From: Gammaproteobacteria bacterium
GTDB taxonomy: Bacteria > Pseudomonadota > Gammaproteobacteria > S012-40
DNA length: 46,356 bases
Assembly: GCA_015491615.1 (NCBI GenBank)
Contig: WFVN01000288.1
Span: 1-46,356, forward strand
Reading direction: 5' to 3'
The notes under the pieces were generated by a model, which was not told the DNA's origin, ran no database searches, and saw only the letters and a program-made list of their open reading frames with translations. Positions within the stretch are counted from its first letter, which is position 1. Each line of letters opens with the position of its first letter. Below are positions 8,296-42,827 of the stretch, piece by piece. The translations under genes and the position numbers were made by a program.

Positions 8296-8660
8296 TCCTG
8301 TTCTTCGTCCTTCTTGGCGCCTGAAACGGCCTCGTCGATGAGACGACTGAGCCGCTGGCCGCGCTCGATGGTTTCGTCCAGTTGGAAACGCAGCTCAGGG
8401 AGGCTACGCAGATCGAGCACCTGCCCCAGTCGATGGCGCAGGCGGCCGGCGCGTTTGCGCAGATGCGCCAACCCTTCGGCCTCGTCGGGGCTATTGAACA
8501 GGCTCACGTACACGCGCGCGTAGGAGAAATCCCGGCTCACCTCCACCGCCGAGATGGTGGGCATTCCCAGGAAGGGGTCGTCCATCTCCCGGGTGATGAT
8601 CTGGGCCAGGGCGCGCTGCATGAGATGCTCCACCCGGCGCCGGCGCTGTTCAGAGGCCAT
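8292..8660 (-). CDS. rbfA: ribosome-binding factor A
   Basis: 122 aa, RbfA-like (RVEHLMQRALAQIITREMDDP...), in the canonical position between infB and truB. Confidence 0.93.
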   Translation of the reverse strand: MASEQRRRRVEHLMQRALAQIITREMDDPFLGMPTISAVEVSRDFSYARVYVSLFNSPDEAEGLAHLRKRAGRLRHRLGQVLDLRSLPELRFQLDETIERGQRLSRLIDEAVSGAKKDEEQE

Positions 8661-8663
8661 GAC

Positions 8664-11141
<2,478 letters not shown>

Positions 11142-11159
11142 ATTCGACTCCAGCTTTCC

Positions 11160-12659
11160 TTACTGGTGCGCCTCGGCGAACCAGGGTTCGCGGGCCTTCA
11201 TGATCAACTTGGCCGCCCGTTCCTCGTCCATCCCTTCAATGTCCATGAGGTCGTCCACCGACTGCTCGGCGAGGTCCTCCATGGTCTTGATGCCCCTCTC
11301 GCCCAGAAGACGGGCCAAGTGGGGATCCATGCCCTCCATCTCCAGGAGATCCGGTTCCACGCCGGTCTCGGTGAGGGCCTCTTCCTTGGCAATGGCGCGC
11401 GTGATGAGAGCGTCCTTGGCGCGACGGCGCAGTTCCTCAACGATATCTTCGTCGAACTCTTCGATCTGGAGCATCTCTTGGGCAGGCACATAAGCCACCT
11501 CTTCGATGGTGGTAAACCCTTCGTCCACCAGGATGGAGGCCACCTCTTCGTCCACGTCCAGTTGTTCCATGAACAACCGGCGGATGGCCTGTGCCTCCTT
11601 GTCGCGTTTTTCCTGTGCCTCTTCCTCGGTCATGATGTTGAGGGTCCAACCGGTCAGCTCGCTGGCCAGGCGCACGTTCTGGCCGCCGCGACCGATGGCG
11701 ATGGAGAGCTGGTCCTCGCTGACGGCGACGTCCATGCTGTGGGCATCCTCGTCGACGATGATGGAGACGATTTCCGCCGGCGACAGGGCGTTGAGGACGA
11801 ATTGGGCGGGGTTCTCGTCCCAGAGGACGATGTCTACCCGCTCACCCGCCAATTCGTTGGACACCGCCTGTACGCGGGAACCGCGCATGCCGACGCAAGC
11901 GCCAACGGGATCGACACGCGGATCGTTGGAACGCACGGCGATCTTGGCGCGCGAGCCGGGGTCGCGGGCGGCACCCATGATGTCGATGAGCCCCTCGCCG
12001 ATCTCCGGCACCTCGATCTTGAACAACTCGATGAGGAACTCCGGGCAGGTGCGGCTGATGAACAATTGCGGCCCGCGCGGCTCGGAGCGCACGTCGCGCA
12101 GGTAGCCGCGCACGCGATCGCCGGGACGCAGGCTCTCACGCGGGATGAGCTCCTCACGGTAGATGATGCCCTCGGCATTGTTGTTGAGGTCGACGATGAC
12201 GTTGCCCTTGTCGATGCGTTTCACCTGGCCGATGACAATCTCGCCCTTGCGGTCACGGAAGAGCTCGACCATCTTCGCCCGTTCCGCCTCGCGCACCTTC
12301 TGGACGATGACCTGCTTGGCGGTCTGGGCGCCGATGCGGCCGAACTCCACCGCCTTGATGGGTTCCTCGATGTAGCCCCCCACCTCGATGTCGTGCTGGC
12401 GCTCACGAGCCTCGCTGAGGCGAATCTGTCGGTCGGGCTCGAACTCCTCCGCATCGTCGGGGACCACTTCCCAACGCCGAAAGGCTTGGTATTCGCCGGT
12501 GTCCCGGTCGATGGCCACGCGCACGTCTACATCGCCCTCGAAGCGCTTCTTAGTGGCCGTGGCCAGGGCGGCCTCCACCGCCCCGAAGATGACTTCTTTG
12601 TCCACGCCCTTCTCGTTGGACACCACCGTCACAACGGTGAGAATCTCTTTGCCGTTCAT
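11160..12659 (-). CDS. nusA: transcription termination/antitermination factor NusA
   Basis: 499 aa with S1, KH1/KH2 and C-terminal acidic repeat regions, in canonical operon position. Confidence 0.98.
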
Positions 12660-12684
12660 CTTGTCTTTCGCCTCCTGCCCGCGT

Positions 12685-13140
12685 TCACCATTCGGGCACC
12701 AGATTCGCCTTCTCCACCCGGTTCAGAGGCAGCGAGACCGTCTCGCCGTCCACCGCCAGGTGCAGTATCCCCTCTTCGGCGCCGACGATGACGCCGACGA
12801 AATTCTTTCTTCCCTCCAGCGGCTCGACCAAGCGTACCTTGCACCGCTGGCCCGCAAAACGCTGGAAATGGGCCGGCTTGAACAATGGTCGGTCCAGGCC
12901 GGGCGAGGACACCTCCAGGTTGTACTCGCCGGGGATGGGGTCCTCCACGTCCAGCAGGGCACTCACTTCGCGGCTCACCGCCTCGCAATCCTCAATGGTG
13001 ATGCCATCGGGATGGTCGATGTAGAGACGCAACACGGAGTGCCGTCCCTGAGGTAAATATTCCACCCCCAGGAGTTCGTATCCGAGGTCCTCGACCGCAG
13101 GAGCCAGGAGCGTTTCCAATCGACTGTTCTTGTTTGCCAT
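12685..13140 (-). CDS. rimP: ribosome maturation factor RimP
   Basis: 151 aa from the internal ATG at 13140 ([29 protein letters not shown] ... [14 protein letters not shown] ... KANLVPEW). This aligns end to end with RimP as I recall it. The GTG extension to 13218 in the track is not RimP-like. Confidence 0.9.
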
Positions 13141-13499: not shown

Positions 13500-15419
13500 T
13501 CATCTTATCTTCCCCTGCCCCGCTTCCGGGACGAGACAGGCACGAATCTCGTCGGCCAGCAGGGTCTCTTTCTCTTCCAGACGCCGCACCAGTTCCAGAT
13601 AGGACTCGCGGTGTGCCTGCAATACCGACTCGGCACGCGTTTCGGCTTCCCGCAACAAACGTTGTACGGCCTTATCCACCGCTGCAGCGGCCAATTCGCT
13701 GTAACGCCGGGGTTGGGCCATCTCCTTGCCCAAGAAGGGATGCTCGTCGCTCTCACGCAGGTCCACCGGGCCGATGCGCTCGTCCATGCCCCAGCGGGAC
13801 ACCATGGCCCGCGCCAAACGTGTGGCCTGGCGGATGTCGTCGTCGGCCCCGGAACTTACGCTGCCCAGGAACAGGCGTTCCGCTGCCCGTCCGCCCAGCA
13901 TCACCGCCAGGCGGTCACGCAGGTACTCCTCGGGCAGGGTGTGTCGCTCCACTTCGGGGAGCTGCTGGGTCACCCCCAGGGCCTGACCGCGGGGGATGAT
14001 GGTCACCTTGTACACCGGATCGGCGTGGGGCAGATAGAAACCCACTGCCGTGTGTCCGCCCTCGTGGACGGCGAGACGATGACGCTCGTCCTCCTGGAGG
14101 ACCAGGTGGCGTTCCACCCCCATGATCACTTTATCCTTGGCCTGGTCGAGATGACGCATGGTGATTTCCGCACGCCGCTCGCGTGCGGCGAGAATGGCGG
14201 CCTCGTTCACCAGGTTCCTCAGATCGGCGCCGGAAAAACCTGGCGTGCCGCGGGCGATGATGGCCAGATCCACGTCCCCGGCCAAGGGTTTGTTGCGCGT
14301 GTGCACCCGCAAGATGGCCTCGCGGTCCTTCACGTCGGGTAGATCCAAGGTCACGTGCCGATCGAAGCGCCCGGGTCGCAACAGGGCGGGGTCCAGCACG
14401 TCCGGCCGATTGGTGGCGGCGACGACGATCACTGCTTCGCGACCGGTGAAGCCGTCCATCTCCGCCAGGATCTGATTGAGGGTCTGCTCCCGTTCGTCGT
14501 GCCCGCCGCCCAGGCCGGTACCGCGTGTGCGGCCCACGGCGTCAATCTCGTCGACGAAGATGATGGATGGAGCACTCTTCTTGGCCTGCTCGAACAGATT
14601 GCGTACCCGGGCCGCCCCCACCCCCACGAACACTTCGATGAATTCCGATGCCGACATGGAAAAGAAAGGGACACCGGCTTCCCCCGCCAAGGCCTTGGCC
14701 AAGAGGGTCTTACCGGTACCAGGGGGTCCCATGAGAAGCACGCCCTTGGGCACTTCCGCCCCCAGCTGGCGAAAGGCCTCCGGGTGCCTGAGGTAGTCCA
14801 CCAGCTCACGCACCTCACGCTTGGCCGTTTCCTGCCCAGCTACGTCGGAGAACTTCACATGGGGCACTTCCGCCGGACCGGAAATGGGCTGGAGGAACTT
14901 CTTCAGGTCTCCACCCCCGGGCGGGCCGCCACCGATGTTGCGGTAAGCACGTCCCATGAGCCACAGCCAGATGACCAGAATGAGGATCCAGGGCAGCCAA
15001 GCGATGAGAATGGTGCGCCAGTCGGTCTCCTGGGAAAGGGCTCGTACGGTCACGTCTCGATCGCGCAAGATCCCCAGAAGGGGTTGAGCCTCCAGGGGCG
15101 GCACCCGGCTTGCAAGGCGCGCACTTTCCTCTCCTTGCGGTCCCAAGGGTTCGGGAAATTTCAGCCGAGCCTCCAGGTCAGCGCCGCGGAAGGTGACCTC
15201 ACTTACCTTACCCGCTTCCAACAGGGCTTCGAAACGACTGAATGGCACCTCGAAGATGGGCTCACCCTGCGTTGGAGCGTAGTACACCCCAAGGAAAGAT
15301 ATGAGCACCAAGAAGATGAGGAACCAAGGCAACCAAGGAGGGGAGTCACCACCGGTCGAGTCGGGCCGGTCTTTCCTTCGGGGATCACGATGGGGCGGCT
15401 TAGAGGGTGGCGTGCTCAT
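13500..15419 (-). CDS. FtsH-type ATP-dependent zinc metalloprotease, probably an extra paralogue
   Basis: Two TM helices flank a ~100-aa periplasmic segment. AAA module [13 protein letters not shown] / [10 protein letters not shown], zinc site HEGGH. ATG at 15419 (MSTPPSK...) preferred over the 15500 start in the track. It is not in the usual ftsH context. Confidence 0.9.
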
Positions 15420-15675
15420 GCATTCGTTCCGCTTCCCGATACCGCCCTTCCGTAAAGGGCGCGGCCCGCACGATAGGACTGTAACGCCACGCTCGGCCAC
15501 CCATTTCCTAACCTGTGGTGGCTATTTTACCCATGCATGGCGTGCACTCGCCCGCCCGAGCTTCCTTGGGGACGAACTTCCCCTCGGGGCACGGGGGGAT
15601 GCCCCCTGAACCGGAATTCGACGTATCGAAAAAGCCGCGGAGCCCCAAGACCCAATTCGTCATGCGCCCTCAACG

Positions 15676-15707: not shown

Positions 15708-16304
15708 TCAAGCGGTGGCTTTCTCCGCTGGTTGAAACTCCTCGAGCATGCGTTTGATCTGCAGGTCTTTGATACGATTGAGCAGCGCCGGATTGATGCC
15801 CACCTTGGCCAGACCTTCGCGAGTGCTCGATTCCAATACCTCGTCGTAGCACTCTGCAATGAGGGTGGCGATGATGCCGCTCACCCGCAGGAAGGCACCC
15901 GCCAGAACCTGGGCCTTTTCCGGCTCGAATTCGGCGAAACATTTCTGGACGAAGATCTGCTGGACATGGTTCATCATCCCCAGCATGTACAGGTTGCGCG
16001 TCTTTCGCTTGATGTGCATGAGGGCGATGTACCACTGGTAACGCCAGTAGTCCTCGTCCTTGCGCCCGGTGAGCATTTGCTCGTACCAACGGGCGAGGGT
16101 CCGCTCCAGTTTGGGGCGTTCACCCTCCTCCACTACCGAGGCCGCCTCCGGACAAGACAAGAGACGATCGTAGAACTGCTGGACGATCTCCGGCCCCCAC
16201 TGCCGTAGATGCTCCGCTTCCGCCTGCAGCACGTCCCAGTCTTCCGGACGGTAGCCGGTCAGTTCGCTCGCGGTTTTGACGTAGTCTCCGACCAGGGTCA
16301 TCAC
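15708..16304 (-). CDS. single-domain sensor globin (protoglobin / globin-coupled-sensor type)
   Basis: 198 aa. IVQQFYDRLLSCPEAASVV ... LERTLARWYEQMLTG ... YIALMHIKRKTRNLYMLGMMNHV parallels the HemAT-type pattern IV..FY..L ... H.RIGL.P.WY, with His in ALMHIKR as the likely proximal ligand. GTG start overlaps the Roadblock stop by 4 nt. Confidence 0.8.
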   Translation of the reverse strand: MMTLVGDYVKTASELTGYRPEDWDVLQAEAEHLRQWGPEIVQQFYDRLLSCPEAASVVEEGERPKLERTLARWYEQMLTGRKDEDYWRYQWYIALMHIKRKTRNLYMLGMMNHVQQIFVQKCFAEFEPEKAQVLAGAFLRVSGIIATLIAECYDEVLESSTREGLAKVGINPALLNRIKDLQIKRMLEEFQPAEKATA

Positions 16305-16684
16305 ATAGCCTCGATGACTTCGTTGAGATGCTTGCGGATGGCGTAACGAACACCGCCAATGACCGCGGTCTGATCGGTGACGATGGCCAGGATGTCGTCT
16401 TTCACCGTCGCCATGATGACCTTGCCGCGCTCGAATTCGGCCAGGTACTGCTCCATCAAACCAAGGGAAAATTCAGCCCCCAGGCTTTCGGTGGTACCGA
16501 TGGCGGTGGCCACCATGGCCCCCAGGGCATCCATGTCCACGGCGGTGGTGGAAGTCCCCTCGATGACGAAACCGTCACGGCCGATGATGGCGGCGGCGAT
16601 GACCCCCTTGATGGTGAGAAACTCGCTCAGCACTTCGTTGAGGCTGTTGCTCTGCGGATTGGCGGTGGTGATGGTCGCGACCAT
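16301..16684 (-). CDS. Roadblock/LC7 (MglB-like) domain protein
   Basis: 127 aa. IKGVIAAAIIGRDGFVIEG ... DMDALGAMVATAIG ... ILAIVTD is the typical Roadblock/LC7 pattern. AGGAGGA Shine-Dalgarno. Confidence 0.85.
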   Translation of the reverse strand: MVATITTANPQSNSLNEVLSEFLTIKGVIAAAIIGRDGFVIEGTSTTAVDMDALGAMVATAIGTTESLGAEFSLGLMEQYLAEFERGKVIMATVKDDILAIVTDQTAVIGGVRYAIRKHLNEVIEAM

Positions 16685-16748: not shown

Positions 16749-17705
16749 TCAGGAAGCGCGCCCCTCCACCACGCGTTGGACCCAAGTCATGACGCCGTCT
16801 CGATCCTTCGGCGTCGTGAGGAACCCCACCTGTTCCCTCAGGTGGGGATATTGCCCGACGATACCTTTCAGGGTATCCGCCAGGAGCAATTCGCCATGCA
16901 CGACGGGAGCGACCCTGAGGAGATGTTCCATCAGGACCACTTCGGCACGCAAGCCGGCGTCCACCTCCATTTGCAACCAAGCCCCTTCCCAGCGAGGGAG
17001 ACGTTCCACCGCCTCACTCCAACCTTTGCCGGCGACGTCCATGCAGACCAGATAGGAAACATGGTTGCGATCGTGGACCGCTCGTACCAACAAAGTGGTG
17101 GCGACCTCCACCACAGGGGCGCCGAACCACTGCCCGACTGCTTGCAGCCGATCCTTTTCCATGAGAGTAAGATAACGGTGCTGGGCCGTCACTTGCTGCG
17201 CCTTGTCGAGGAAGGAGAACAGGCGCTCCACAGGTAGGGCGCGCGCCGTGATCGAGGTGATCCCCGGGTGGTGGTTGGGGAGCGCATGAGCACGCCGTTC
17301 ACCCGCGAGGGCGTGGTCGAGCACAGCACGCGCTTCTCGCAATGCCGCGCGCGGATTGCCGAAATTCAAACGGCAACGAGCCCTTTCCAGGCCCCGCATA
17401 ATACGGGGATCGTCGTTGTCCCATTGCCGGGCGGTGTGTATGAAGTCTTCGAGGAGCCCACGGATTTCCGCTGCTCGAGATTCGTACTGACGGTCTATGC
17501 GCTCGAAGATGGAGGCAGCTCGGGCAAGGCGCTCTTTGGCCTTCTCGCGCCCGTTGCGGACGGCTCCATCAAGGAGCCCGCTTAACCTAGAAAATTCATC
17601 AGGAAAATAGAAATCGGCGCCGAGGCGCAGATTCGCCTGATAACGAAGAACTAAACCGACCGGGTCAGTAAGCTTCTGTTCATCTAATTTTGGATGTGCG
17701 GACAT
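16749..17705 (-). CDS. hypothetical protein (318 aa from ATG 17705), first gene of the Roadblock-protoglobin operon
   Basis: Long ORF in coding-like composition. Helical N-terminal half, alpha/beta-looking C-terminal half. No Walker A or other motif I recognise. 64 nt upstream of the Roadblock gene on the same strand. Confidence 0.6.
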   Translation of the reverse strand: MSAHPKLDEQKLTDPVGLVLRYQANLRLGADFYFPDEFSRLSGLLDGAVRNGREKAKERLARAASIFERIDRQYESRAAEIRGLLEDFIHTARQWDNDDPRIMRGLERARCRLNFGNPRAALREARAVLDHALAGERRAHALPNHHPGITSITARALPVERLFSFLDKAQQVTAQHRYLTLMEKDRLQAVGQWFGAPVVEVATTLLVRAVHDRNHVSYLVCMDVAGKGWSEAVERLPRWEGAWLQMEVDAGLRAEVVLMEHLLRVAPVVHGELLLADTLKGIVGQYPHLREQVGFLTTPKDRDGVMTWVQRVVEGRAS

Positions 17706-17863: not shown

Positions 17864-20062
17864 ATGTATTTAAACCATTTCTCCCTTGCTCGCGCACCCT
17901 TCGACTTCCTGCTGGAACCCGATCTCACCTACTGGAGTCCGGGTCTGAAGGCACTCTGGACGGAAGTGACCCGAGGCCTCGGCAATGGTCGCAGCCCCCA
18001 GTTCGTCGTCGCCCGACCCGGATGCGGGAAGTCGTTCTTCCTCCACTTGCTCGCCCTGCACAGCATCGAACAGGGACATAACTGCGCCTACATCGACGTC
18101 GCTGGCCAGCGCGCCGACCTGTTTGAATCGCTCTCCCTCGCCTACGGGCTGGAATACCCTTCCCAGAGTGAGGAACAGTATCTCACATGGTTCGAGAGCT
18201 TCCTCGCCTCGTCACGCCTCGGGGGCATCCAGAACGTCCTGTTGCTGGACAACGTCCACCGCATGGACTCCCAGGCTCTACAGAAACTGGTCTATTTGAT
18301 CAAGATCCGTATCGACAATACCCCTTTGCTCCACGTGGTGGCGACCCTCAGTGAAAAGGAAGACCAAGAAGCCTTGGAGTTGCTCACCGCCAACCAGGTC
18401 TCCGCGAAGCCACTCCTCCTCCCCCCCCTGGACGTGGCGCACACGGGTGCCTACATCACCCACCGCCTCAAAGCCGCCGGACACGACAACGGAGACCTTT
18501 TCGACGATGACGTGGTGGAGTGGCTCCATGCGCGCTCGCGCGGCATTCCCCGCGAGATCAATTATTACGCCGACTTGTTCATGACGCATGCCTACCTGCG
18601 GCACCAGCGACGGATCCATACCCGACTCGTTCAATTGGTGGATCCCACCGACAACACCCGCAAGCCGAAGGAGACCCACCCCGGGATCGTCGTCGAACGA
18701 CCGAAGCCGTCCACCTCCCCCCGCGGGGGTACGAGCGAAACCATAGGAGGCAAGACGACGCCCGATGAGGGCATCGCCACGGTGAAGTCGTCTCCGCCCC
18801 GCCCCACCCACGAAAGGCAAAAATCGGGGGGAACGGCCGAGCCATCCCGAGCGACCGAACCGACAGTGGCCGACGAGCCCAGATCTTCGTCCAAGGCCAA
18901 GTCCACCAGAGGGCGACCCGAAGTAGGGAAAGGCAACCCACGACACACGGACGAAGGCAAAGGCACGCGAACGACGAACGACACGAAACAACCCTCGCCG
19001 CCTCCCCCTACGGCCGAGAGCCCTGTTTCTTCCACCTCCCGACCGGAAAATGAAGCACCGGCCGCCAATCGCCGAGGTTTGTTCCTCGCCGCAGCCGCTC
19101 TCGTCATGCTGGTCTTGGCCGGCCTCGTTCTGTTGCAGAGCGACGAAACCAGAGACGTCCCCCCTCCGCAGGCGGTAGCGGAAACTTCTCCAGGAGAACG
19201 TCCCAATACCCCCATCCCGGTAACCCGTACGCCGCCCGCCCAACCTGAGGGACGGTCCGAAACCGAAACCGGGGGACAACCCCCCAGCCGCGTGGCCAAG
19301 CAAGAGGTGACGACCCAACCGGTGGAACAACCGGTCAAGACAGCGCCAACTTCACCTGCTGCCCCCCGAACGCGGACGGATGAGAAACCAACTCCTCCCG
19401 TAGCGACTCCTGCACCCGAGACGAAACCGCGCATTGAAGAGCCGAGGAAACCAGCAACCCTCGTCGCCAAGGCTGAGCCGCCCCTCGAAACCGCCGCGGC
19501 GCCCCCGGGAGAAACGGTGTCGTCTCCTCCACCCTCGCCCCGTCTTTCCGAAGCCGCGAAAGAGCGCGATTCACAAATACCAGCGGCGCCCGTCGCCGAT
19601 AGCGAGACAGAAGTCGCTCCGGAGGGACACACGCCTACGGAAACGGACTCCGAATTCGCCAGTTTCGTCCCTGCGCCCGATGGCCAGGATCCGTTGCTGG
19701 CCGTGCAGGCCTTGGACAACCTCGTCCACCGTTTCCAATGGGCTTACGAAAATGCCGACGAACACGTCCTTGCAGAGATTTTCGACCCCAACATTCGCAC
19801 CAACGAAAACAGCGGTCGCGACGCCATCCTCAACGAATACGGCCAGTTCTTCCGCGTCACCCAAACCCGTCGCTTGGCAATCGGTCCCCTCGAATGGCAG
19901 ACTTCCGGTATGGTTTCCACCGGGGTGGGACGCTTTACCGCCCATGTAGTGACCAAGAGGGGCAAGGAACGCACCTTCACCGGCACGTTGACCATCGAAG
20001 CCATCGCCACCCCCGCGGGCCGTCCCAAGATCACGGCCCTTTACTACCGATACGATAGCTGA
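17864..20062 (+). CDS. ExeA/GspA/MshM-like AAA ATPase fused to a long Pro-rich linker, one TM helix and an NTF2-like C-terminal domain
   Basis: N-terminus MYLNHFSLARAPFDFLLEPDLTYW ... RPGCGKS ... VLLLDNVHRM ... SRGIPREINYYAD follows the ExeA pattern (MYxxHFGLxxxPF; GxGKT; DEAQ; GxPRxIN). Then ~130 aa of P/S/T/K/R-rich sequence, TM GLFLAAAALVMLVLAGLVLL (nt ~19076-19135), ~170 aa P/E/T/A-rich, and a ~120-aa globular tail. Confidence 0.8.
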   Translation: MYLNHFSLARAPFDFLLEPDLTYWSPGLKALWTEVTRGLGNGRSPQFVVARPGCGKSFFLHLLALHSIEQGHNCAYIDVAGQRADLFESLSLAYGLEYPSQSEEQYLTWFESFLASSRLGGIQNVLLLDNVHRMDSQALQKLVYLIKIRIDNTPLLHVVATLSEKEDQEALELLTANQVSAKPLLLPPLDVAHTGAYITHRLKAAGHDNGDLFDDDVVEWLHARSRGIPREINYYADLFMTHAYLRHQRRIHTRLVQLVDPTDNTRKPKETHPGIVVERPKPSTSPRGGTSETIGGKTTPDEGIATVKSSPPRPTHERQKSGGTAEPSRATEPTVADEPRSSSKAKSTRGRPEVGKGNPRHTDEGKGTRTTNDTKQPSPPPPTAESPVSSTSRPENEAPAANRRGLFLAAAALVMLVLAGLVLLQSDETRDVPPPQAVAETSPGERPNTPIPVTRTPPAQPEGRSETETGGQPPSRVAKQEVTTQPVEQPVKTAPTSPAAPRTRTDEKPTPPVATPAPETKPRIEEPRKPATLVAKAEPPLETAAAPPGETVSSPPPSPRLSEAAKERDSQIPAAPVADSETEVAPEGHTPTETDSEFASFVPAPDGQDPLLAVQALDNLVHRFQWAYENADEHVLAEIFDPNIRTNENSGRDAILNEYGQFFRVTQTRRLAIGPLEWQTSGMVSTGVGRFTAHVVTKRGKERTFTGTLTIEAIATPAGRPKITALYYRYDS

Positions 20063-20067
20063 AGACC

Positions 20068-21276
20068 ATGCGTCTCTTCGCCCTCACGCTACTGCTGATC
20101 TTTTCCTCCCTCACTCATGCAAAAGAACCCCTGCGTCTCGCGGTGCTCGGCATGCCGTTGGATGAGCTGGAGGCGGAAATCGAAACGCCGCCAGCCCCCG
20201 CGCCGCAGCCTTCTCCACGGGCGCCGATCGCCCCTCCACCACCCGCTGTTCCAGCCCCTGCGGAGATCCAGCCTGCCGTTCCAGTGGTCGAAGACGACAG
20301 CGGTGACGCCGCCACTCCCTCACCTTCCGCTAGCGAGGCGGCATCGGCTGTCGCCCCCCAACCCTCTCCTCCCCCTGGTGACATGGCCTTGTTCCGAATT
20401 CTGAACGAGCGACGCCACGACTTTTATCCTTCCACTTTGGCCCTGCCCGTCTATGGCAACCAACAACGCTTGGATCCCGATCTGTGCTTGGCCCTGGCCT
20501 GGAACATGGACGCACGCTGGCAATCACGTCTGTGTTACACGGCCCTGTATGGAGAACTTGAGGAGCGCGATCGACGGAGTGGTGCCATGCTGGGTCGATT
20601 CAGCACCCAATGGGCAGACGGCCAACTGGACCTCGTCGATTACGTCCATGCCTTCGACGACGACTTCATGATCAGTGTCGGCTGGGTGGTCTCGCGCTAT
20701 CTCCTCGATTTCGACCGCACCGGTCAGTACACCGAGCTGGGCGGCATCCGTTACGATAGCCAGAGCACCCTCGCCGCCCTCACCAGCGGTCTACAGGTGG
20801 GCACCTATTTGCGAACCGCCGAAGGCTCCGTGCTGCGGGCGCGGGTGAGTCTCGAACCCTTTGGGCGCTACGATCTGAATCAGGCCTTCTTCGTGGGTAA
20901 CGACCTCTCCGCCAGCAATCGGCAGAGCGGCTCCAATATCGGCACCGTCGTTTCCCTTAGCTTTTCCGCTACGCGCAGAATCGCCTCCCGCCTGGAAGGA
21001 ACGGCAGAGGTGCGCTATCGCCATCTGCCTTACGCTTACGACACTCTCATGACGGCCCAGGTGGGCACCGATAAGATCCAGTTGGAAGATCGCTTCTCGG
21101 GCAGCGACACCCTCCTTCGCACGGGATTTCGTCTCGGAATTGAAGTGCCCTGGGCGAGCGTCTCTCCTTATGTGGAGACGAGCCTGTTCTATACCAGCCA
21201 TAAGGACGAGGCGGACAAGGAATATCTTTACTACAGCGGTTACCGCTTTTACCTGGGAGTCTCGAAGATTTTTTGA
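20068..21276 (+). CDS. putative outer-membrane beta-barrel protein with Pro/Ala-rich N-terminal region
   Basis: Signal peptide MRLFALTLLLIFSSLTHA. ~90 aa P/A-rich segment, then ~280 aa of alternating amphipathic strands ending YRFYLGVSKIF (C-terminal Phe beta-signal). Starts 5 nt after the ExeA-like stop. Confidence 0.7.
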   Translation: MRLFALTLLLIFSSLTHAKEPLRLAVLGMPLDELEAEIETPPAPAPQPSPRAPIAPPPPAVPAPAEIQPAVPVVEDDSGDAATPSPSASEAASAVAPQPSPPPGDMALFRILNERRHDFYPSTLALPVYGNQQRLDPDLCLALAWNMDARWQSRLCYTALYGELEERDRRSGAMLGRFSTQWADGQLDLVDYVHAFDDDFMISVGWVVSRYLLDFDRTGQYTELGGIRYDSQSTLAALTSGLQVGTYLRTAEGSVLRARVSLEPFGRYDLNQAFFVGNDLSASNRQSGSNIGTVVSLSFSATRRIASRLEGTAEVRYRHLPYAYDTLMTAQVGTDKIQLEDRFSGSDTLLRTGFRLGIEVPWASVSPYVETSLFYTSHKDEADKEYLYYSGYRFYLGVSKIF

Positions 21277-21329: not shown

Positions 21330-21406
<77 letters not shown>

Positions 21407-22953: not shown

Positions 22954-28520
<5,567 letters not shown>

Positions 28521-33859: not shown

Positions 33860-35367
33860 CATCGGCCCTTGGGGCGCATGTGCGGAAAAAGGAGCACGTC
33901 GCGGATGGAGGGCGAATCGGTGAACAGCATCACCAGGCGGTCGATGCCGATACCCTCGCCGGCGGTGGGCGGCATGCCGTGCTCCAGGGCGATGATGTAG
34001 TCCTCGTCGAAGTGCATGGCCTCCTCGTCCCCGGCGGCGCGTTCCTCCAACTGCTTGCGGAAGCGCTCTGCCTGGTCCTCGGCGTCGTTGAGCTCGGAGA
34101 AGCCATTGGCGATCTCCCGGCCGCCGACGAAGAACTCGAAACGGTCGGTGACGAAGGGGTCGTGGTCGTTGCGCCGCGCCAAAGGGGAAACCTCCACCGG
34201 GTAGGCGGTGATGAAGGTGGGGTCCTTGAGGCGGTGTTCCACCGTCTTCTCGAAGATCTCCAACTGGATCTTGCCCAGCCCCCAGGTGGGCTTCAGGGGG
34301 ATCTCCAGGCGCTCGGCCACCTGTTTGGCGCGCTCCAGGTCGTCCAGGTCGGCGGTGGTCAGCTCCGGGTTGTAGCGGAGGATGGCCTCCTTCAGGGTGA
34401 GGCGGGTGAAGGGGCGGCCGAAGTCGTAGGTCTCCCCCTGGTAGGTGACCTGGGTGCTGCCCAGGACCTCCTCGGCCACCGTGCGCAGCATGTCCTCGGT
34501 GAGGTCCATGAGGTCTTCGTAGGTGGCGTAGGCCTCGTAGAACTCGAGCATGGTGAACTCGGGGTTGTGGCGCGTGGAGAGGCCCTCGTTGCGGAAGTTA
34601 CGGTTGATCTCGAAGACCTTCTCGAAGCCGCCCACCACCAGGCGCTTCAGGTACAGCTCCGGGGCGATGCGCAGGTACAGGTCCATGGACAGAGCGTTGT
34701 GGTAGGTCTTGAAGGGACGCGCGGTGGCGCCGCCGGGGAGGACCTGCATCATCGGCGTCTCCACCTCCAGGAAGCCCCGGTCGATGAGATAGCGGCGAAT
34801 GCGGTCGATGATGGCCGAGCGCAGGCGGAAGGTGCGACGGGAGACCTCGTTCATGATGAGGTCCAGGTAGCGCTGGCGGTAGCGGGTCTCCTGGTCGGCC
34901 AAGCCGTGGAACTTCTCCGGCAGGGGACGCAGGGACTTGGTGAGCAGGCGGATCTCATCCACCATCACCGTCAGCTCGCCGGTCTTGGTCTTGAAGAGGG
35001 TGCCCTCGGCGCCGAGGATGTCGCCGATGTCCCATTTCTTGAACTGGGCGTACACCCCTTCGGGCAGGTTGTCCCGCTTGACGTAGATCTGGATGCGCCC
35101 GGACATGTCCTGCAGGTGGGCGAAGGCCGCCTTGCCCATGATGCGGCGCGTCATCATGCGCCCGGCGATGGCCACCCGACGCGGATGCTCGGCCAGCCAG
35201 GCCTCGTCCTTGTCACCGTACTCGGCGTGCAGCTCGGCGGCCATGACGTTGCGGCGGAAGTCGTTGGGGAAGGGCACCGGGGTCTGCCGGCGCAGCTCGG
35301 CCAGTTTCGCCCGGCGCTGGGCGATCTGCTCGTTCTCGTCGTCGATGCGCTGTTGTTCGTCTGTCAT
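33859..35367 (-). CDS. lysS: lysine--tRNA ligase (class II)
   Basis: 502 aa with OB anticodon-binding domain and class II motifs (FLEVETPMM; FRNEG; [10 protein letters not shown]). Confidence 0.98.
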
Positions 35368-35376
35368 TTCAATGCC

Positions 35377-36475
35377 TTAGAGTCCACTCTTGAGGCTCGC
35401 CTCGATGAATTGATCCAGGTCGCCATCCAGCACCGCCTGGGTGTTGCCCACCTCCACGCCGGTGCGCAGGTCCTTGATGCGGGACTGGTCGAGGACGTAG
35501 GAGCGGATCTGGTGCCCCCAACCGATGTCCGACTTGGTCTCCTCCAGGGCCTGCTGTTCGGCGCGCCGCTTCTGCATCTCCAGCTCGTAGAGCTTGGCCT
35601 TGAGCTGCTTCATCGCCTGGGCCTTGTTCTTGTGCTGGGAGCGGTCGGTCTGGCACTGGACAACGATGCCGGTGGGTAGGTGGGTGATGCGCACCGCCGA
35701 TTCGGTGCGGTTGACGTGTTGGCCGCCGGCGCCGGAGGCGCGATAGACGTCGATGCGCAAATCCGCCGGGTTGATGTCGATGTCGATGTCGTCCTCCACC
35801 TCGGGGGAGACGAACACAGAGGCGAAGGAGGTGTGGCGGCGGTTGCCCGAGTCGAAGGGCGACTTGCGCACCAGGCGGTGGACGCCGGTCTCGGTACGCA
35901 GCCAACCATAGGCGTAGGGGCCTTCGAAACGTACCGTGGCGCTCTTGATGCCCGCCACCTCTCCCGGGGAGACCTCGATGAGCTCGGTCTTGAAACCGTG
36001 CCGCTCGCCCCAGCGCAGGTACATGCGCAGGAGCATCTCGGCCCAGTCTTGGGCCTCGGTGCCGCCGGAACCGGCCTGGATGTCCATGTAGGCGTTGGCG
36101 GCATCCATCTCGCCGGAGAACATGCGCTGGAACTCCAGTTCGTGGACCTGCTTCTCGAAGCGTTCCACGTCTTCGGCCACCGCCTGGGCCAGGTCGGCAT
36201 CGTCGTCCTCGGCGGCCAGCTCTAGCATCTCCGCGGCGTCTTTGAGACCCTGGGTGAGTTGGTCGAGACCCTGCACCACCTGTTCCAGCTGGGCCCGTTC
36301 ACGGCCCAGGGCCTGGGCGCGATCCGGGTCGTTCCAGACCTCCGGGTCTTCCAGTTCGCGGTTGACTTCTTCTAGGCGTTCTTTCTTGTGCTCGTAGTCA
36401 AAGATACCCCCTCAGGGCGTCCACGCGCCCTTGGAGGTCTCGGATCTTGTTCAGTAACGGATTGATTTCCAACAT
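35377..36475 (-). CDS. prfB: peptide chain release factor 2, expressed via programmed +1 frameshift
   Basis: ORF0 runs from ATG 36475 ([25 protein letters not shown]) to in-frame TGA 36400-36398. The +1 frame continues from GAC 36399-36397 ([25 protein letters not shown]...) into track ORF 35377..36279, which carries SPF and GGQ (SGAGGQHVN). Confidence 0.95.
36397..36412 (-). promoter_or_regulatory. RF2 autoregulatory +1 frameshift site
   Basis: Minus strand AGGGGG TAT CTT TGA C: internal Shine-Dalgarno-like element, slippery CTT and UGA-C stop, the classic prfB recoding signal. Confidence 0.9.
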
Positions 36476-36536
36476 GACTCGGCCCTGAATTCAAAGGCCG
36501 GAAATGATACACCAATGACAAATGGGATGGGATAGC

Positions 36537-36568
36537 GTAAAAACACGGAGCCCCGCCGGAGACGGGGC
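36537..36568 (-). terminator. candidate intrinsic terminator after the 125-aa exported-protein gene
   Basis: Minus strand GCCCCG-tctccgg-CGGGGC followed by TCCGTGTTTTT. Confidence 0.5.
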
Positions 36569-36596
36569 CGCTGGAAGCCGGAGAGGTTTCAAAGGC

Positions 36597-36974
36597 TCAG
36601 AAACGCAGCTTCAACCCGATGTTGGCGTTGTTGGCCACGTAACCCACCTGCATGCTCAAGGTGCCGGCCTGGAACAGGCGCCGGTACTTGGGGGGCAGGG
36701 CGTGGGCGACCCCGGCGTGCAACAAGGCGGTGGTGAGAAAATAGGTGTTCACTTTCTGGGCGCTGGGGCAGCGACCGAGGATGGGGTTGGTCTCGTAGTA
36801 GGCCCCGGACTGGCACTGGGCGGCGATGTCCAGGGTCTGCCCCCAATCGGTGATGTGCACGGAGAGGTAGGCCATCTCCCACAGGGTGTCTTGTTTGGTC
36901 CAGGCACTGGCATCGTTGAAGGCGCCCATGAAAAGGAGCACCGTCAAAACCCACGGAAATACCCTCTTGCGCAT
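36597..36974 (-). CDS. hypothetical exported protein, 125 aa
   Basis: Signal peptide MRKRVFPWVLTVLLFMGAFNDASA. Mature part has two Cys and ends IGLKLRF (OMP-like C-terminal Phe). No family recognised. Confidence 0.6.
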   Translation of the reverse strand: MRKRVFPWVLTVLLFMGAFNDASAWTKQDTLWEMAYLSVHITDWGQTLDIAAQCQSGAYYETNPILGRCPSAQKVNTYFLTTALLHAGVAHALPPKYRRLFQAGTLSMQVGYVANNANIGLKLRF

Positions 36975-37091
36975 CGTTGCCCCATGTTTCTTCGTAAACC
37001 GTCTTGGTTTGCGGCCGCCGGGGCACGGCGAAGAGAGGGCATATCGCGCACTGGGTCACAAAAACCCGAAAACAAACAAGGGATGGGAGAA

Positions 37092-37496
37092 ATGATTTAC
37101 AACAGATTGATTTTAATAATAATTACCCCTTTCCTGTTTTCCTGTAGCCAGGAAGAAACGCTCGTTCCCGCCCCCGTGGGGCAGCGAGCGGTCCTGGAGG
37201 AACTGGCCGAGGCTTACGAGAAGATCGCCCGACAGGTGGAAGGCAATCCGCGTCAGCTCCCACCAGAGGAACGGTTACGCTTCGTACGTTTCGTCTTCAA
37301 AGAGGCCGGCTACGACTATCAGGCCACCTTGCGGGCGATGGCCGCATCCCCGCTGGACCCCATGGACACCCTGCAACGGGACTTGGCGGAGCTGCTGCTC
37401 TTGCCTCACCGGGCGGGCGGTTGGGTGAAGCCGGAGTCGGTCTATCCCGAGTCGGACTTGGCGGCCATCGATCGGCTGGAGTCCGTCTTTTTTTAG
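37092..37496 (+). CDS. hypothetical lipoprotein, 134 aa
   Basis: Internal ATG at 37092 of track ORF 36522..37496 gives MIYNRLILIIITPFLFSC (lipobox LFSC). GGATGGGAGA sits upstream. The rest is predicted helical. The 5' end is A/T-rich. Confidence 0.6.
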   Translation: MIYNRLILIIITPFLFSCSQEETLVPAPVGQRAVLEELAEAYEKIARQVEGNPRQLPPEERLRFVRFVFKEAGYDYQATLRAMAASPLDPMDTLQRDLAELLLLPHRAGGWVKPESVYPESDLAAIDRLESVFF

Positions 37497-37515
37497 GCCG
37501 GGAAACGCCGATTCT

Positions 37516-37544
37516 TTGACATTTTTCGTGCTCAAATCTATGCT
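37516..37544 (+). promoter_or_regulatory. candidate sigma70 promoter for the Gly/Met-repeat protein gene
   Basis: TTGACA (37516-37521), 17 nt spacer, TATGCT (37539-37544), in an A/T-rich spacer ~60 nt upstream of the ATG at 37607. Confidence 0.5.
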
Positions 37545-37606
37545 TTCCAAAAACAATAATCCAACGACACGCCGCCGGACAGGCCGTCGAGATGTGGGGA
37601 GAAACG

Positions 37607-38578
37607 ATGCTGGAACAAGGCCTGCGGCGGGTACTGGCCGGGTACGCGGCGCTGATCGTCGCTGCCCATGCGTGGGCCGCCCCGCCGATGCCCTTCGACA
37701 ATTGGACCGCGAACCCCGACGGGACTCTCACAGCACCCTGCCCCGCGGGCTACGCTTGTGTGGTAAACGTCACCGGAGAAGGAATCCTTCAGCGCCTCAT
37801 CACTGCCCCCGACGGGCGCAGCTATATCCAGCTCGTCGTTTATTCCCCCACTCCCAACGGCGAGTTGCGCGAAGAGAGTTTCGTTCGCGCAGACAACGCC
37901 TTGGAGAATGGACTCTCCTCCCGGCAAGTCCTCACCAGCAATGGGTCAGTGGGAGAAAATCTCACCAGCATCGTGCTCATTAATACCGGCTGGGCCATGG
38001 ATCCAGGCCAGGCGGCGGTCCAGATCGAGCAAACGCTCGTCGACATCACGCCCGAAGGGACGCAATTCGACCAAATATTCCAAAAACTTATCGACCACGA
38101 TGCCAACGGCCTGGCCATCGGCTACTACATGAACATCCGCCAGGACCTCATCAACTCCACTCTTATGAACGGTGTGTCCCTGGGTCCCAGCGACCAGGAC
38201 ATCCACTCTTTCGTCCTTCGCCAGGTGCAAGGCACCCGCAATCCCGTGGCTGGATCCGCCACCCTGCCCGGCGGTGGCATGATGGGAGGAGGCATGATGG
38301 GAGGGGGAGTCACCGGCGGGACGATTTCTTGGGTCCCTGGCGACGAGGTGAAGGTGATCTGGATCGGCCAGATCTGTACCGGCGCATGCCGGCAAGGTGG
38401 TGGCATGATGGGCGGTGGTGGTATGGGCGGTATGGGAATGATGGGCGGCGGGTTGTTCGCCTATCAGGCCTACGACAACCTCTCCGACACCGCTCCGCAA
38501 ATCAACTCTCTCTCCCTATTCAGTACCGACCCGATCATTTGGCAGGATCCGCCTTTCGGTCCCCAGCCCAGTCTCTGA
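37607..38578 (+). CDS. hypothetical secreted protein with two GGMMGGG-type repeats and two Cys pairs
   Basis: Signal peptide MLEQGLRRVLAGYAALIVAAHAWA. CPAGYAC and CTGAC motifs. PGGGMMGGGMMGGGVTGG and QGGGMMGGGGMGGMGMMGGG segments. No family recognised. The ATG at 37607 (GGGGAG upstream) is preferred over 37592. Confidence 0.65.
   Translation: MLEQGLRRVLAGYAALIVAAHAWAAPPMPFDNWTANPDGTLTAPCPAGYACVVNVTGEGILQRLITAPDGRSYIQLVVYSPTPNGELREESFVRADNALENGLSSRQVLTSNGSVGENLTSIVLINTGWAMDPGQAAVQIEQTLVDITPEGTQFDQIFQKLIDHDANGLAIGYYMNIRQDLINSTLMNGVSLGPSDQDIHSFVLRQVQGTRNPVAGSATLPGGGMMGGGMMGGGVTGGTISWVPGDEVKVIWIGQICTGACRQGGGMMGGGGMGGMGMMGGGLFAYQAYDNLSDTAPQINSLSLFSTDPIIWQDPPFGPQPSL
38270..38452 (+). repeat. two coding Gly/Met repeat blocks (38270-38320 and 38395-38452)
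   Basis: Reiterated GGC/GGT/GGA-ATG-ATG-GG units visible in the nucleotide sequence. Confidence 0.8.
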
Positions 38579-38809
38579 GGAAACGGCTGTCGCGGCCAAG
38601 AGCAAGTGTCCGCGAGCTTGCAAGCGTGCCAGAAGACGTCCGGCCTTCACGTTTCCTTCCTGGACCGCAATGGTGAGCATGACCTCGGCCCGTTGCCAGT
38701 GCCCCCGTTCCAGCGCCATGAGCCCCTCCTCGTAGGCACAGGAGCCGCCGGCCCAGGCCGGCCCTGCGGCGAGGATCCCCAAAATCAGACCCAGATGGAC
38801 CTTCTTCAT
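38516..38809 (-). CDS. candidate 97-aa exported protein translationally coupled to ygiQ
   Basis: The ATG at 38809 overlaps the ygiQ stop (ATGA). GGGAGGAG lies 7 nt upstream. Signal peptide [20 protein letters not shown], then a short helical segment ([12 protein letters not shown] is Sel1/TPR-like). The 3' 63 nt overlap the convergent gene, so the true stop or the reality of the tail is uncertain. Confidence 0.4.
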
Positions 38810-40935
38810 GACAGTCTCCTCCCGGTGCGTCTGGCCGATCGCCGTACCGGAGAGCGACGCCCTCCCCTTTCGATCCGTTTTATAGACCGTTTTTCGGCCG
38901 TTTTCCTGGAAGTCGCAGGCTGCCATGCCGGCACCAGGTGACGCTTGCCGTTGCCGATGAGGTCTTCGCGCCCCATGCGGCGCAGGGCCTCGCGGATGAG
39001 TGGCCAGTTGTCCGGGTCGTGGTAGCGCAGGAAGGCCTTCTGCAGGCGCCGGGCGCGCAGGCCCTTGGCGGTGAAGACCCGTTCGCTGGTACGCGTGACC
39101 TTGCGCAGGGGGTTGCGGCCGCTGTGGTACATGGCGGTGGCGGTGGCCATAGGCGAAGGCAGGAAGGTCTGCACCTGGTCCGGGCGGAAGCCGTTTTCCT
39201 TCAGCCACAGGGCGAGCTTCAGCATGTCCTCATCGGTGGAGCCGGGGTGGGCGGCGATGAAATAGGGGATGAGGTACTGCTCCTTGCCGGCCTCGCGGGA
39301 GTATTTGTCGAACAGGCGCTTGAAGCGGTGGTAGGTCTTGATGCCCGGCTTGAGCATCTTGGAGAGGGGGCCGGGCTCGGTGTGCTCGGGGGCGATCTTC
39401 AGATAACCGCCTACGTGGTGGGTGACCAGCTCGCGGACATACTCGGGCGAGCGTACCGCCAGGTCGTAACGCAGGCCGGAGGCCACCAGGACCTTTTTGA
39501 TCCCGGGCAGGGCGCGCGCCTTGCGGTACAGACGGATGAGAGGGCGGTGGTCGGTGTTCAGGTGCGGGCAGATGTCCGGATAGACGCAGGACGGCTTGCG
39601 GCAGGCGGCCTCGATCTTGGGGTCCTTGCAGGCCAGGCGGTACATGTTGGCGGTGGGGCCGCCCAGGTCGGAGATGACGCCGGTGAAACCGGGCACCCGG
39701 TCGCGGATGGTCTCGATCTCGCGCAGGATGGATTCTTCCGAGCGGCTTTGGATGTGGCGCCCTTCGTGTTCGGTGATGGAGCAGAAGGTGCAGCCCCCGA
39801 AGCAGCCGCGCATGATGTTCACAGAGAAGCGGATCATCTCGTAGGCGGGGATGCGCGCCTCGCCGTAGGCCGAGTGGGGGCGGCGGGTGTAGGGCAGCTC
39901 GAAGACCCAGTCCAGCTCCTCGGTGGTGAGGGGCAGCGGCGGCGGGTTGACGAACACCCAGCGGTCCCCGTGGCGCTGGGCCAGCGGGCGGGCGTTGCCC
40001 GGGTTGGTCTCCAGGTGGATGACGCGCGAGGCGTGGGCGTAGAGGTCTTTGTCGTCGCGCACCTGTTCGAAGTCGGGGAGGACGATCACCTCGGGCCGGC
40101 TCCGTTCCCGCCGGTGCCAGCGGACCGGGGTCGCCCGCCCCGCCTCCGCCGACGCCTGCCGGCAATCATTGGCCGCGGCCATGGCGTAGGGGTGGGGGTC
40201 GGCGGGACCATGGCCGGGGGCGTCGATGTGGCGGGCGTCCACGGGGACATGGTCCGCCGGCAGGGACTTGCGCACATGGACTATGCCGCGGATGTCCCAC
40301 AGGTCTTCGATGGACACCCCGCGCGCCAGACGGTGGGCGATCTCGACGACGGCCCGCTCGCCGTTGCCGTACACCAGCAGGTCGGCCTTGGCGTCCACCA
40401 GGAGCGAGCGTCGCACCTTGTCCGACCAGTAGTCGTAGTGGGCCAGGCGGCGCAGGCTGGCCTCGATGCCGCCGAGGACGATGGGTACGTCGGGGAAGGC
40501 CTCCCGCGCCCGTTGGGCATAGACGAGGCTGGCCCGGTCGGGGCGCGAGCCGCCCTTCCCGCCGGGCGTGTAGGCGTCGTCGGAGCGGCGCTTGCGGTCG
40601 GCGGTGTAGCGGTTGACCATGGAGTCCATGTTGCCGGCGGTGATGCCGAAGAACAGATTGGGACGGCCCAGGGCGGCGAAGGGCTCGGCGCTGCGCCAGT
40701 CGGGCTGGGCGATGATCCCCACCCGAAAGCCTTGCGCCTCCAGGACCCGACCGATCACCGCCGCCCCGAAGCTGGGGTGGTCCACATAGGCGTCACCGCT
40801 GACGATGACGATGTCGCAACTGTCCCAGCCCAAGGCGTCCATCTCCGCCCGGCTCATGGGCAGTTCGGGGGCCGGGGTGAGGCATTCCGCCCAGAAGCGG
40901 GGATAGGAGAAAATGGGGCGCGGCGCGTCCTTCAT
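38806..40935 (-). CDS. ygiQ: YgiQ-family (UPF0313) radical SAM protein
   Basis: 709 aa. N-terminus [31 protein letters not shown], radical SAM cluster motif CFGGCTFCS, basic C-terminal tail. Typical of YgiQ. Confidence 0.92.
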
Positions 40936-41088
40936 GGTTCTCTGGAGCCAAATTTGAGGATTTTACTATGCTATGACCTTTCCAGGAGCGCGCCGTTTCC
41001 CCGGCATATGACGAACGCCGCATTACCCAAAATGGAGCGCCGTTGCCACGAGGTGCAGGCCCTGGGGGTGTACCGGCAGATGCGCGTT

Positions 41089-41910: not shown

Positions 41911-41940
41911 TCGCTCACCTCGGCCACCGCCGCACCACGC

Positions 41941-42801: not shown

Positions 42802-42827
42802 GTTCCTCCCCTCGGTATGCCCGAGGG

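Follow-up and report, generated by a model that had tools for sequence, protein, structure and literature searches.

A bitopic ExeA-like protein with a degenerate Walker B motif and an NTF2-like periplasmic head, encoded beside a Roadblock/protoglobin operon and a predicted outer-membrane barrel

Architecture of the ExeA-like protein

The DNA analysed here, called the window throughout, is the whole 46,356-nucleotide stretch of contig WFVN01000288.1 (assembly GCA_015491615.1) from a gammaproteobacterium. It carries a gene for a 732-residue bitopic protein, here called the target, which an earlier note made from the sequence alone had described as an ExeA-like ATPase with an altered Walker B motif, a Pro-rich periplasmic spacer and an NTF2-like head. 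Judging from sequence and gene context, we put at roughly 55% the probability that this protein is the inner-membrane subunit of a conserved, previously undescribed envelope module, whose other candidate parts are encoded immediately beside it. The features of the target, in window coordinates, are as follows.

17864 to 20062, plus strand: gene for the 732-aa bitopic ExeA-like protein (P0001); open reading frame (ORF) with an ATG start and full-length orthologues (alignment A1)
17864 to 18649, plus strand: cytoplasmic ExeA/GspA/TIGR03015-type P-loop domain, aa 1-262, from TIGR03015 and AAA_22 matches
18011 to 18034, plus strand: Walker A, ARPGCGKS (A50 to S57); G53, G55 and K56 invariant in orthologues
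18236 to 18262, plus strand: degenerate Walker B, VLLLDNVHR (V125 to R133), with Asn replacing the catalytic Glu; D129, N130, H132 and R133 invariant in 7/7 orthologues
18650 to 19069, plus strand: low-complexity cytoplasmic linker, aa 263-402, from composition (140 aa, P 16%, T 14%, S 11%, isoelectric point (pI) 9.7)
19076 to 19135, plus strand: single transmembrane helix, aa ~405-424, N-in/C-out; RRGLFLAAAALVMLVLAGLVLL conserved
19139 to 19690, plus strand: periplasmic Pro-rich acidic spacer, aa 426-609 (184 aa, P 21%, T, A and E 12% each, pI 4.6)
19691 to 20059, plus strand: periplasmic NTF2-like (SnoaL-like) domain, aa 610-732 (123 aa), from AlphaFold2, Foldseek and profile search

The N-terminal part is ExeA/GspA-like, as the earlier note held. 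Its best NCBIfam match is TIGR03015 (pepcterm_ATPase), the XrtA/PEP-CTERM system-associated ATPase within the ExeA/GspA/MshM-related group. Residues 1-257 align with model positions 1-260 of 269 at E 9e-26, and the score of 90.8 bits lies below the curated cut-off of 324.5, which places the target outside the family as curated. In Pfam, PF13401 (AAA_22) covers residues 46-158 (E 2e-9), so that the AAA_22-type P-loop domain of ExeA/GspA is present, and searching PDB sequences with the N-terminal domain was of no help, the best match being a DnaA-related protein at E 0.048.

Both nucleotide-binding motifs had been singled out, Walker A as RPGCGKS and Walker B as LLLDNVH, and both readings hold. 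The first position of Walker A, residue 50, is Gly in five orthologues and Ala in two. At Walker B, where ExeA/GspA proteins have an intact hhhhDE(AQ), the target reads LLLDNVH, and the consensus of the orthologues is LLLDN.HR (7/7), the relatives having DEAQ or DEAH. When 50 other ExeA-like sequences were aligned, 49 of them spanning the motif, 43 had DE, five DD and one DN. The Walker A Lys (K56), the Walker B Asp (D129) and the Arg of the GIPRxIN motif (R230, here in GIPREIN) are kept in the target and invariant in its orthologues. In P-loop ATPases, replacement of the Walker B Glu by Gln or Asn stops hydrolysis and not binding. The sole other DN-type member seen (P0011, L018:8001-9611) is an AAA_22+SPOR protein with Walker B IDNAH, encoded downstream of pilMNOPQ-aroK-aroB, the position of DamX in enterobacteria; its grouping with the target clade in the tree was not relied on, both branches being longer than 3 substitutions per site.

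The cytoplasmic linker is rich in Pro, Thr and Ser, as had been described, but its basic character is not a conserved property: sequence, length (140-189 aa) and charge all vary among orthologues, and the linker is acidic in three of them. The single transmembrane helix and the Pro/Glu/Thr/Ala-rich spacer behind it also proved to be as the earlier note had them. Because the helix is preceded by Arg-Arg and followed by Asp/Glu, the topology is assigned as N-in/C-out, and a hydropathy scan finds an equivalent mid-protein helix in relatives. In orthologues the spacer is 172-201 aa long, with a short conserved motif, NTPIPVTRTPP, right behind the helix.

The NTF2-like head

The tail is predicted to be an NTF2-like alpha+beta cone, the fold that had been proposed from its sequence pattern. 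An AlphaFold2 model, for which 39 diverse sequences of the domain family were aligned, has a predicted local distance difference test score (pLDDT) of 92.9 and a predicted TM-score (pTM) of 0.83. When this predicted structure was compared with the PDB by Foldseek, the top matches were all NTF2-like, among them 3soy (E 3.5e-9, TM-score 0.81), and 452 matches reached E<=1e-3; a profile search of the PDB likewise returned the NTF2-like N-terminal domain of PBP5/PBP2a, ketosteroid isomerases and designed NTF2 proteins. The target itself misses the Pfam gathering threshold of SnoaL_4 (E 0.009, 16.5 bits against a cut-off of 24), and relatives of the domain score on SnoaL_2, SnoaL_3 and DUF4440, on the first two above or near the cut-offs.

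The earlier note implied that the fusion was novel and that the C-terminal domain was foreign to ExeA-like proteins, and here the evidence goes largely the other way. When 1.84 billion representatives were searched with a profile built on the tail, 683 clusters matched at E<=1e-3; in 45 of the 147 best non-orthologous ones, the NTF2-like domain stands at the C-terminus behind an ExeA-like N-domain and a transmembrane helix in mid-protein. The NTF2-like domain is frequently present in two copies in such fusion proteins, and many other matches are proteins in which a DnaJ domain, or a short N-terminus, precedes the transmembrane helix and the NTF2-like domain. Two of the proteins concerned, P0019 (366.3 bits) and P0154 (342.9 bits), score above the TIGR03015 cut-off, as does another of them, a 960-residue paralogue in the target's own genome (C278:9137-12019, 341.6 bits). 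This paralogue has GRPGTGKT and VVDEAQ as its Walker motifs, a DnaJ-like insert, a transmembrane helix, a spacer and an NTF2-like tail, and is homologous to the target in both globular domains (E 7e-22 for the N-domain, E 1e-10 for the C-domain). Its J-domain-like insert has no obvious HPD motif and reads FQPANG at that position. Because of the 45/147 clusters, the two proteins that pass the TIGR03015 cut-off and the own-genome paralogue, we conclude that a fusion of ATPase, transmembrane helix and NTF2-like domain is not unusual, and that the NTF2-like domain is a standard, unannotated partner of ExeA-like/TIGR03015 ATPases. A literature search found no published description of the ExeA-like-NTF2 fusion.

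Rarity and conservation of the orthologues

Full-length relatives of the target are few. Among 5.8 billion clustered proteins there are six full-length homologues, with 44-66% identity, and among the 1.84 billion representatives three orthologous clusters at 50% identity (E<1e-70), the next match being at 1e-28. In a set of 40 related GTDB genomes, one of the same genus is the sole carrier of an orthologue. Across the orthologue alignment both globular domains and the transmembrane helix are highly conserved, and both linkers are freely variable; by this pattern the target is a real gene under selection and not a chance ORF. In a tree of the N-domain, the stem of the target clade is 3.58 substitutions per site long and its internal branches are short. 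Since the globular domains are strongly conserved on this long stem branch, the N-domain is functional rather than decaying.

The divergent operon and the outer-membrane barrel

The earlier note was right that pilin, secretin and type II secretion system (T2SS) genes are not nearby (none occurs within the 46-kb window), but it overlooked a probably co-transcribed gene for a predicted outer-membrane barrel and a conserved divergent Roadblock/protoglobin operon. These neighbours are the following.

20068 to 21276, plus strand: 402-aa protein predicted to be an outer-membrane beta-barrel; bears a Pro-rich arm and, N-terminally, a tether motif; starts 5 nt past the stop of the ExeA-like gene
16749 to 17705, minus strand: 318-aa protein without a recognised fold (the "X" position); conserved in all orthologous loci
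16301 to 16684, minus strand: Roadblock/LC7 (MglB-like) protein, 127 aa; PF03259, E 2e-13
15708 to 16304, minus strand: single-domain protoglobin (sensor globin), 198 aa; PF11563, E 8e-16; overlaps the stop of the Roadblock gene by 4 nt

In five orthologue loci (L002, L007, L008, L010 and L021) the ExeA-like gene has a divergent operon upstream for a 318-340-aa protein, a Roadblock/LC7 protein and a protoglobin, and in all five a gene for a ~400-430-aa protein begins 2-5 nt past its end. This five-gene core is thus kept, and the genes further out differ between loci. The protoglobin is present in all orthologous loci and in a more distant one (L019). The Roadblock proteins of L002 and L008 are 92% identical to that of the window, yet the ExeA-like proteins there are 44-48% identical overall. 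No sigma-70-like promoter was seen in the intergenic region between the divergent operons.

The Roadblock, protoglobin, 318-aa and barrel genes are single copies in the genome, which is 87% complete. Since no small Ras-like GTPase was found in this 87%-complete assembly, where the PF00071 matches are IF2 and another large GTPase only, the Roadblock protein appears to be without its classical partner there. The 318-aa protein has no match in Pfam, NCBIfam or the PDB, and a PDB profile search of its family returned noise only. Close relatives of the Roadblock protein (32-56% identity) also occur as tandem pairs in Fibrobacterota/Chitinispirillaceae and in metagenome-assembled genomes of Methanocella/Methanomicrobiales (L036-L047, L052-L065), at loci without an ExeA-like or protoglobin neighbour. 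No published description of the Roadblock-protoglobin module was found in a literature search.

The 402-aa protein is a predicted outer-membrane beta-barrel without an assigned family. A signal peptide (…SLTHA|KEP) comes first; the N-terminus of the mature protein (KEPLRLAVLGMPLDELEEE…) has the invariant motif EPLRLAVLGMPLDELEEE, and a Pro-rich arm of ~90 aa and a region of ~270 aa that ends in …GVSKIF make up the rest; two Cys are conserved. AlphaFold2 models the barrel region as all-beta, with ~12-14 long antiparallel strands and no plug domain (pLDDT 66-89), and Foldseek matches it to outer-membrane barrels only (omptins, FadL/TodX, autotransporter beta-domains and a Dot/Icm porin) at TM-scores of 0.3-0.4. 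Even under relaxed cut-offs neither this protein nor the 318-aa one gave a Pfam or NCBIfam match, and the barrel alignment, used as a search profile, retrieved the seven members of the target clade and nothing beyond.

The module in distant relatives

A divergent operon for a ~320-366-aa protein and a Roadblock/LC7 protein is present at 10/10 loci of the target type or of a more distant type named after P0017, and most of these also have the protoglobin, the outer-membrane barrel, or both. The ten are the five orthologue loci together with L016, L019, L020, L022 and L028 (L023 is the same contig as L016); a Roadblock-alignment scan of species-representative genomes brought in L022 and L028. 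Among ATPase-bearing proteins, P0017 has the NTF2 head closest to that of the target, and its clade also includes P0112 and P0064. The genes of all three are divergent to an operon for a 345-366-aa protein, a Roadblock protein, optionally a second Roadblock-like protein and a protoglobin, and a secreted protein of 443-538 aa. This arrangement is found in L016, L019, L020 and L028, and in L022 as far as its contig end.

In the 443-538-aa secreted proteins a hydrophobic xLxxAxLG motif stands at the N-terminal end, an acidic linker follows, and the C-terminus reads …S..F. Barrel partners of both types are built alike, with a signal peptide, the hydrophobic xLxxAxLG motif, a linker, the barrel and a terminal Phe. 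An end-to-end hhalign comparison of the two, which is a non-circular test, gives E 1.8e-4 over 275 collinear columns and lends weak support to their relationship. For the X and outer-membrane proteins of L016, L019, L020 and L023, hidden Markov model (HMM) E-values are circular, the HMMs having been built with those very sequences.

Divergence is unequal among the parts. Roadblock identity to the window is 51-64% in the distant L016, L019 and L020, with 64% in L016; the NTF2 heads of P0064 and the target are 32% identical (E 1e-22), and their ATPase domains ~21%. The nearest relatives keep DEAQ, or in one case (P0017) DD, with the same neighbours. One genome of the same GTDB family as that of the window (G004) carries a P0064-type module (L020), so that the target would be the fast-evolving equivalent in its own lineage. 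This suggests that the target clade is a fast-evolving version of the module, in which the barrel gene changed place to follow the ATPase gene and Walker B lost its catalytic Glu.

A further locus, in an uncultured gammaproteobacterium (L029:886-4874), encodes a 598-aa protein in which an ExeA-like ATPase domain (Walker B DD) is joined to the C-terminal portion of the X family of 345-366 aa. The fusion protein has no transmembrane helix and is followed by a Roadblock protein, a 372-aa Roadblock-like protein and a protoglobin. It offers a Rosetta-stone hint that the ATPase domain may work with the Roadblock operon.

A proposed function and its alternatives

As the inner-membrane subunit of an envelope module, the target might work as follows. 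The P-loop domain would bind nucleotide and hydrolyse it slowly or not at all, acting as a switch or scaffold rather than as a motor. Roadblock/LC7 proteins regulate NTPases, for example MglB and the conservon, and because of this the cytoplasmic Roadblock complex may set the state or the oligomerisation of the P-loop domain, with the haem sensor globin (the protoglobin) informing the Roadblock complex. A signal or tether would then run through the transmembrane helix and along the extended spacer as far as the NTF2-like head, which may dock onto, assemble or gate the outer-membrane barrel, possibly via the N-terminal EPLRLAVLGMPL peptide of the barrel. ExeA itself spans the periplasm to aid secretin assembly at the outer membrane. 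The 184-aa spacer, if fully extended, would far exceed the width of the periplasm, and the 90-aa arm of the barrel would point the same way. The full scheme, that the five genes form a new trans-envelope system in which the protoglobin and the Roadblock/LC7 protein set the state of a catalytically disabled ExeA-like protein that is relayed to barrel assembly or gating, is tentative, and we consider it possible with odds well short of even.

Several points weigh against this proposal. The loss of hydrolysis through the Walker B Asn would be an extrapolation from Glu-to-Gln mutants of other P-loop ATPases. The barrel model is moderate (mean pLDDT 59) and matched no specific family of outer-membrane proteins. 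By hhalign the 318-aa protein shows no significant similarity to the 345-366-aa family (E 0.0015-0.33), and the two are equivalent in position only. The links between head and barrel and between Roadblock protein and ATPase come from gene order and one fusion: a Roadblock/LC7 gene adjoins the gene for an ExeA-like, not Ras-like, NTPase at 10/10 loci, to which the one ATPase-X fusion is added, and the link is a genomic one. Moreover, Roadblock-protoglobin and X-Roadblock-protoglobin operons occur without an ExeA-like neighbour as well (L024, L030, L033 and others), so the coupling of ATPase and operon is facultative.

One may argue that the target is a displaced and diverged XrtA/PEP-CTERM-type (TIGR03015) ATPase, which serves the assembly or export of exopolysaccharide (EPS) while its EPS cluster lies elsewhere. 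TIGR03015 is indeed its best NCBIfam match, the architecture and both globular domains are homologous to those of the 960-aa paralogue, and the genome encodes an exosortase. However, the target scores far below the family cut-off, and a bona fide copy, the paralogue, already stands next to Wza and Wzc: its EPS-type cluster (L006, G000 C278:5012-15054) encodes a Wza-like protein, a Wzc-like BY-kinase, the ATPase, a TPR protein, an O-antigen-ligase-like protein and a PHP tyrosine phosphatase. In addition, the target has neither DEAQ nor the DnaJ-like module, which is absent from its cytoplasmic linker. Its surroundings are housekeeping genes and the Roadblock operon rather than an EPS/PEP-CTERM cluster; its own neighbourhood is kept in 10/10 loci, no EPS gene occurs in the annotated or scanned flanks of target-type or relative loci, and none of the five orthologue contexts (0/5) is a mannose-sensitive haemagglutinin (MSHA), T2SS or PEP-CTERM cluster, which agrees with the earlier note. 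We therefore regard this explanation as unlikely. The EPS link of the long form is itself not universal: in a second genome (G001) the gene before the paralogue, where its 2.8-kb contig ends, is a fragment of Wzc, but in three other genomes of the family the long ATPase-NTF2 genes have no adjoining Wzc or Wza homologues.

Equally unlikely, in our view, is that the NTF2-like head acts enzymatically on a periplasmic or lipid-like molecule, or senses it as a small ligand, with a FadL/TodX-like barrel as its importer. Its structural neighbours do include ketosteroid isomerases, dehydratases and LinA, polar and aromatic residues are conserved in the wider family (Y33, Y64, R74 and W83 of alignment A3), and FadL/TodX-type barrels are among the Foldseek matches of the partner. 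Nevertheless, multidomain envelope proteins such as VirB8, TcpC and PBP2a (in its N-terminal domain) mostly use the NTF2 fold for non-catalytic purposes. No catalytic motif was identified in the head, and the TM-scores of the barrel to FadL are 0.3-0.35.

More doubtful still is that the target is a GspA/ExeA-type assembly factor for a distant secretin, of a T2SS or a type IV pilus, with the NTF2-like head replacing the peptidoglycan-binding domain. It would draw on the family-level homology to ExeA/GspA and on two secretin genes that lie on other contigs of the genome, in whose assembly no other GspA-like gene was found. Yet GspB/ExeB, PF01471, secretin, pilus and T2SS/MSHA genes are absent from the window and from the five orthologue loci, the catalytic Glu has been lost, and the immediate partner is a barrel-type outer-membrane protein rather than a secretin. 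Finally, that the target transduces energy in the manner of TonB, from the inner membrane to an outer-membrane transporter, is very improbable: the membrane anchor, Pro-rich spacer and small head, and a conserved barrel N-terminus placed like a TonB box, do resemble such a system, so that the likeness to TonB drawn in the earlier note stands as to composition only, but the head is NTF2-like with no TonB_C (PF03544) match, no ExbB/ExbD genes occur nearby in the window, the transmembrane helix lies mid-protein behind a 400-aa cytoplasmic part, and the barrel, of ~12-14 strands, has no plug domain.

To our knowledge, ExeA/GspA-like ATPases are poorly understood outside Aeromonas, and the TIGR03015 branch has no assigned mechanism. 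The present analysis indicates that a large share of the ExeA/GspA superfamily bears a periplasmic NTF2-like head and not a peptidoglycan-binding domain, and that one sub-branch is tied to a Roadblock/LC7-protoglobin operon and a dedicated outer-membrane barrel, which supplies concrete candidate partners for an otherwise orphan family. On this evidence from gene content, the five-gene module may be a new system. In the lineage of the target, the catalytic Glu has been lost from a domain still held under strong constraint, a natural "Walker B trap". If the proposal is true, cytoplasmic gas or redox sensing would be linked to the outer membrane, in the form of a gas- or redox-controlled outer-membrane function, and this would be the first case of a Roadblock/LC7 regulator whose NTPase is of the AAA_22 type and not a Ras-like GTPase.

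Other genes in the window

A tRNA-Met(CAT) gene (21330-21406, minus strand) lies between the barrel gene and yciI, so the Roadblock/ExeA-like block and an FtsH gene together occupy the interval between tRNA-Met and rimP-nusA-infB; the placement of the block between rimP and yciI is repeated in L002, L007 and L010. The FtsH homologue (TIGR01241, 725 bits; 13500-15500, minus strand) has a Pro/Arg-rich N-terminal extension and lies downstream of the protoglobin operon; it has the same position in L007, not in L002, L008 or L010. Further along, smc and ligA adjoin with a 38-nt gap and without zipA between them (22954-28520, minus strand), likewise in L002, L007 and L010. Behind a multicopper oxidase gene is a run of seven ORFs (33880-42861, plus strand; 599, 324, 328, 111, 778, 289 and 161 aa), and no Pfam match at E<=1e-5 was found for the six that were searched (all but the 111-aa ORF at 38606-38941). 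An ORF of 1469 aa (8382-12791, plus strand) was rejected as an antisense artefact of high-GC infB-nusA, the real genes being at 8664-11141 and 11160-12659 on the minus strand.

Comparison with known systems

The ExeA/GspA proteins of the Aeromonas and Vibrio T2SS share with the target an AAA_22-type domain, the MYxxxFxLxxxPF N-terminus, GIPRxIN, one transmembrane helix, a periplasmic C-terminal domain and a presumed reach toward an outer-membrane partner. In the target, however, the periplasmic domain is NTF2-like and not PG_binding_1 (it has no PF01471 match), Walker B is DN instead of DE, there is no GspB partner or T2SS context, and the partner is a beta-barrel outer-membrane protein rather than a secretin. 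The long form of TIGR03015, in which the ATPase, an optional DnaJ module, a transmembrane helix and an NTF2-like domain follow one another, has the same order of ATPase, linker, helix, spacer and head as the target, which is linked to Roadblock, protoglobin and an outer-membrane protein instead of an EPS cluster.

The P0017/P0064/P0112 type, from uncultured Chromatiales/Ectothiorhodospiraceae-like Gammaproteobacteria, has the same divergent neighbourhood, and one of its members occurs in the same GTDB family. In contrast to the target, it keeps DEAQ (DD in P0017), its cytoplasmic linker is ~200 aa longer, and its barrel gene lies inside the Roadblock operon and not downstream of the ATPase gene. 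In MglA/MglB and the Streptomyces conservon (CvnA-D), as at the present locus, a Roadblock/LC7 gene stands beside a P-loop NTPase and a sensor component, whereas here the NTPase would be ExeA-like AAA_22 and not Ras-like, the sensor is a protoglobin and not histidine-kinase-like, and the link is a genomic one. TonB, too, is anchored in the inner membrane and carries, beyond a Pro-rich periplasmic spacer, a small C-terminal head that faces an outer-membrane barrel, but the C-terminal fold of the target differs, ExbBD is absent, a large cytoplasmic P-loop module is present, and the transmembrane helix is not N-terminal.

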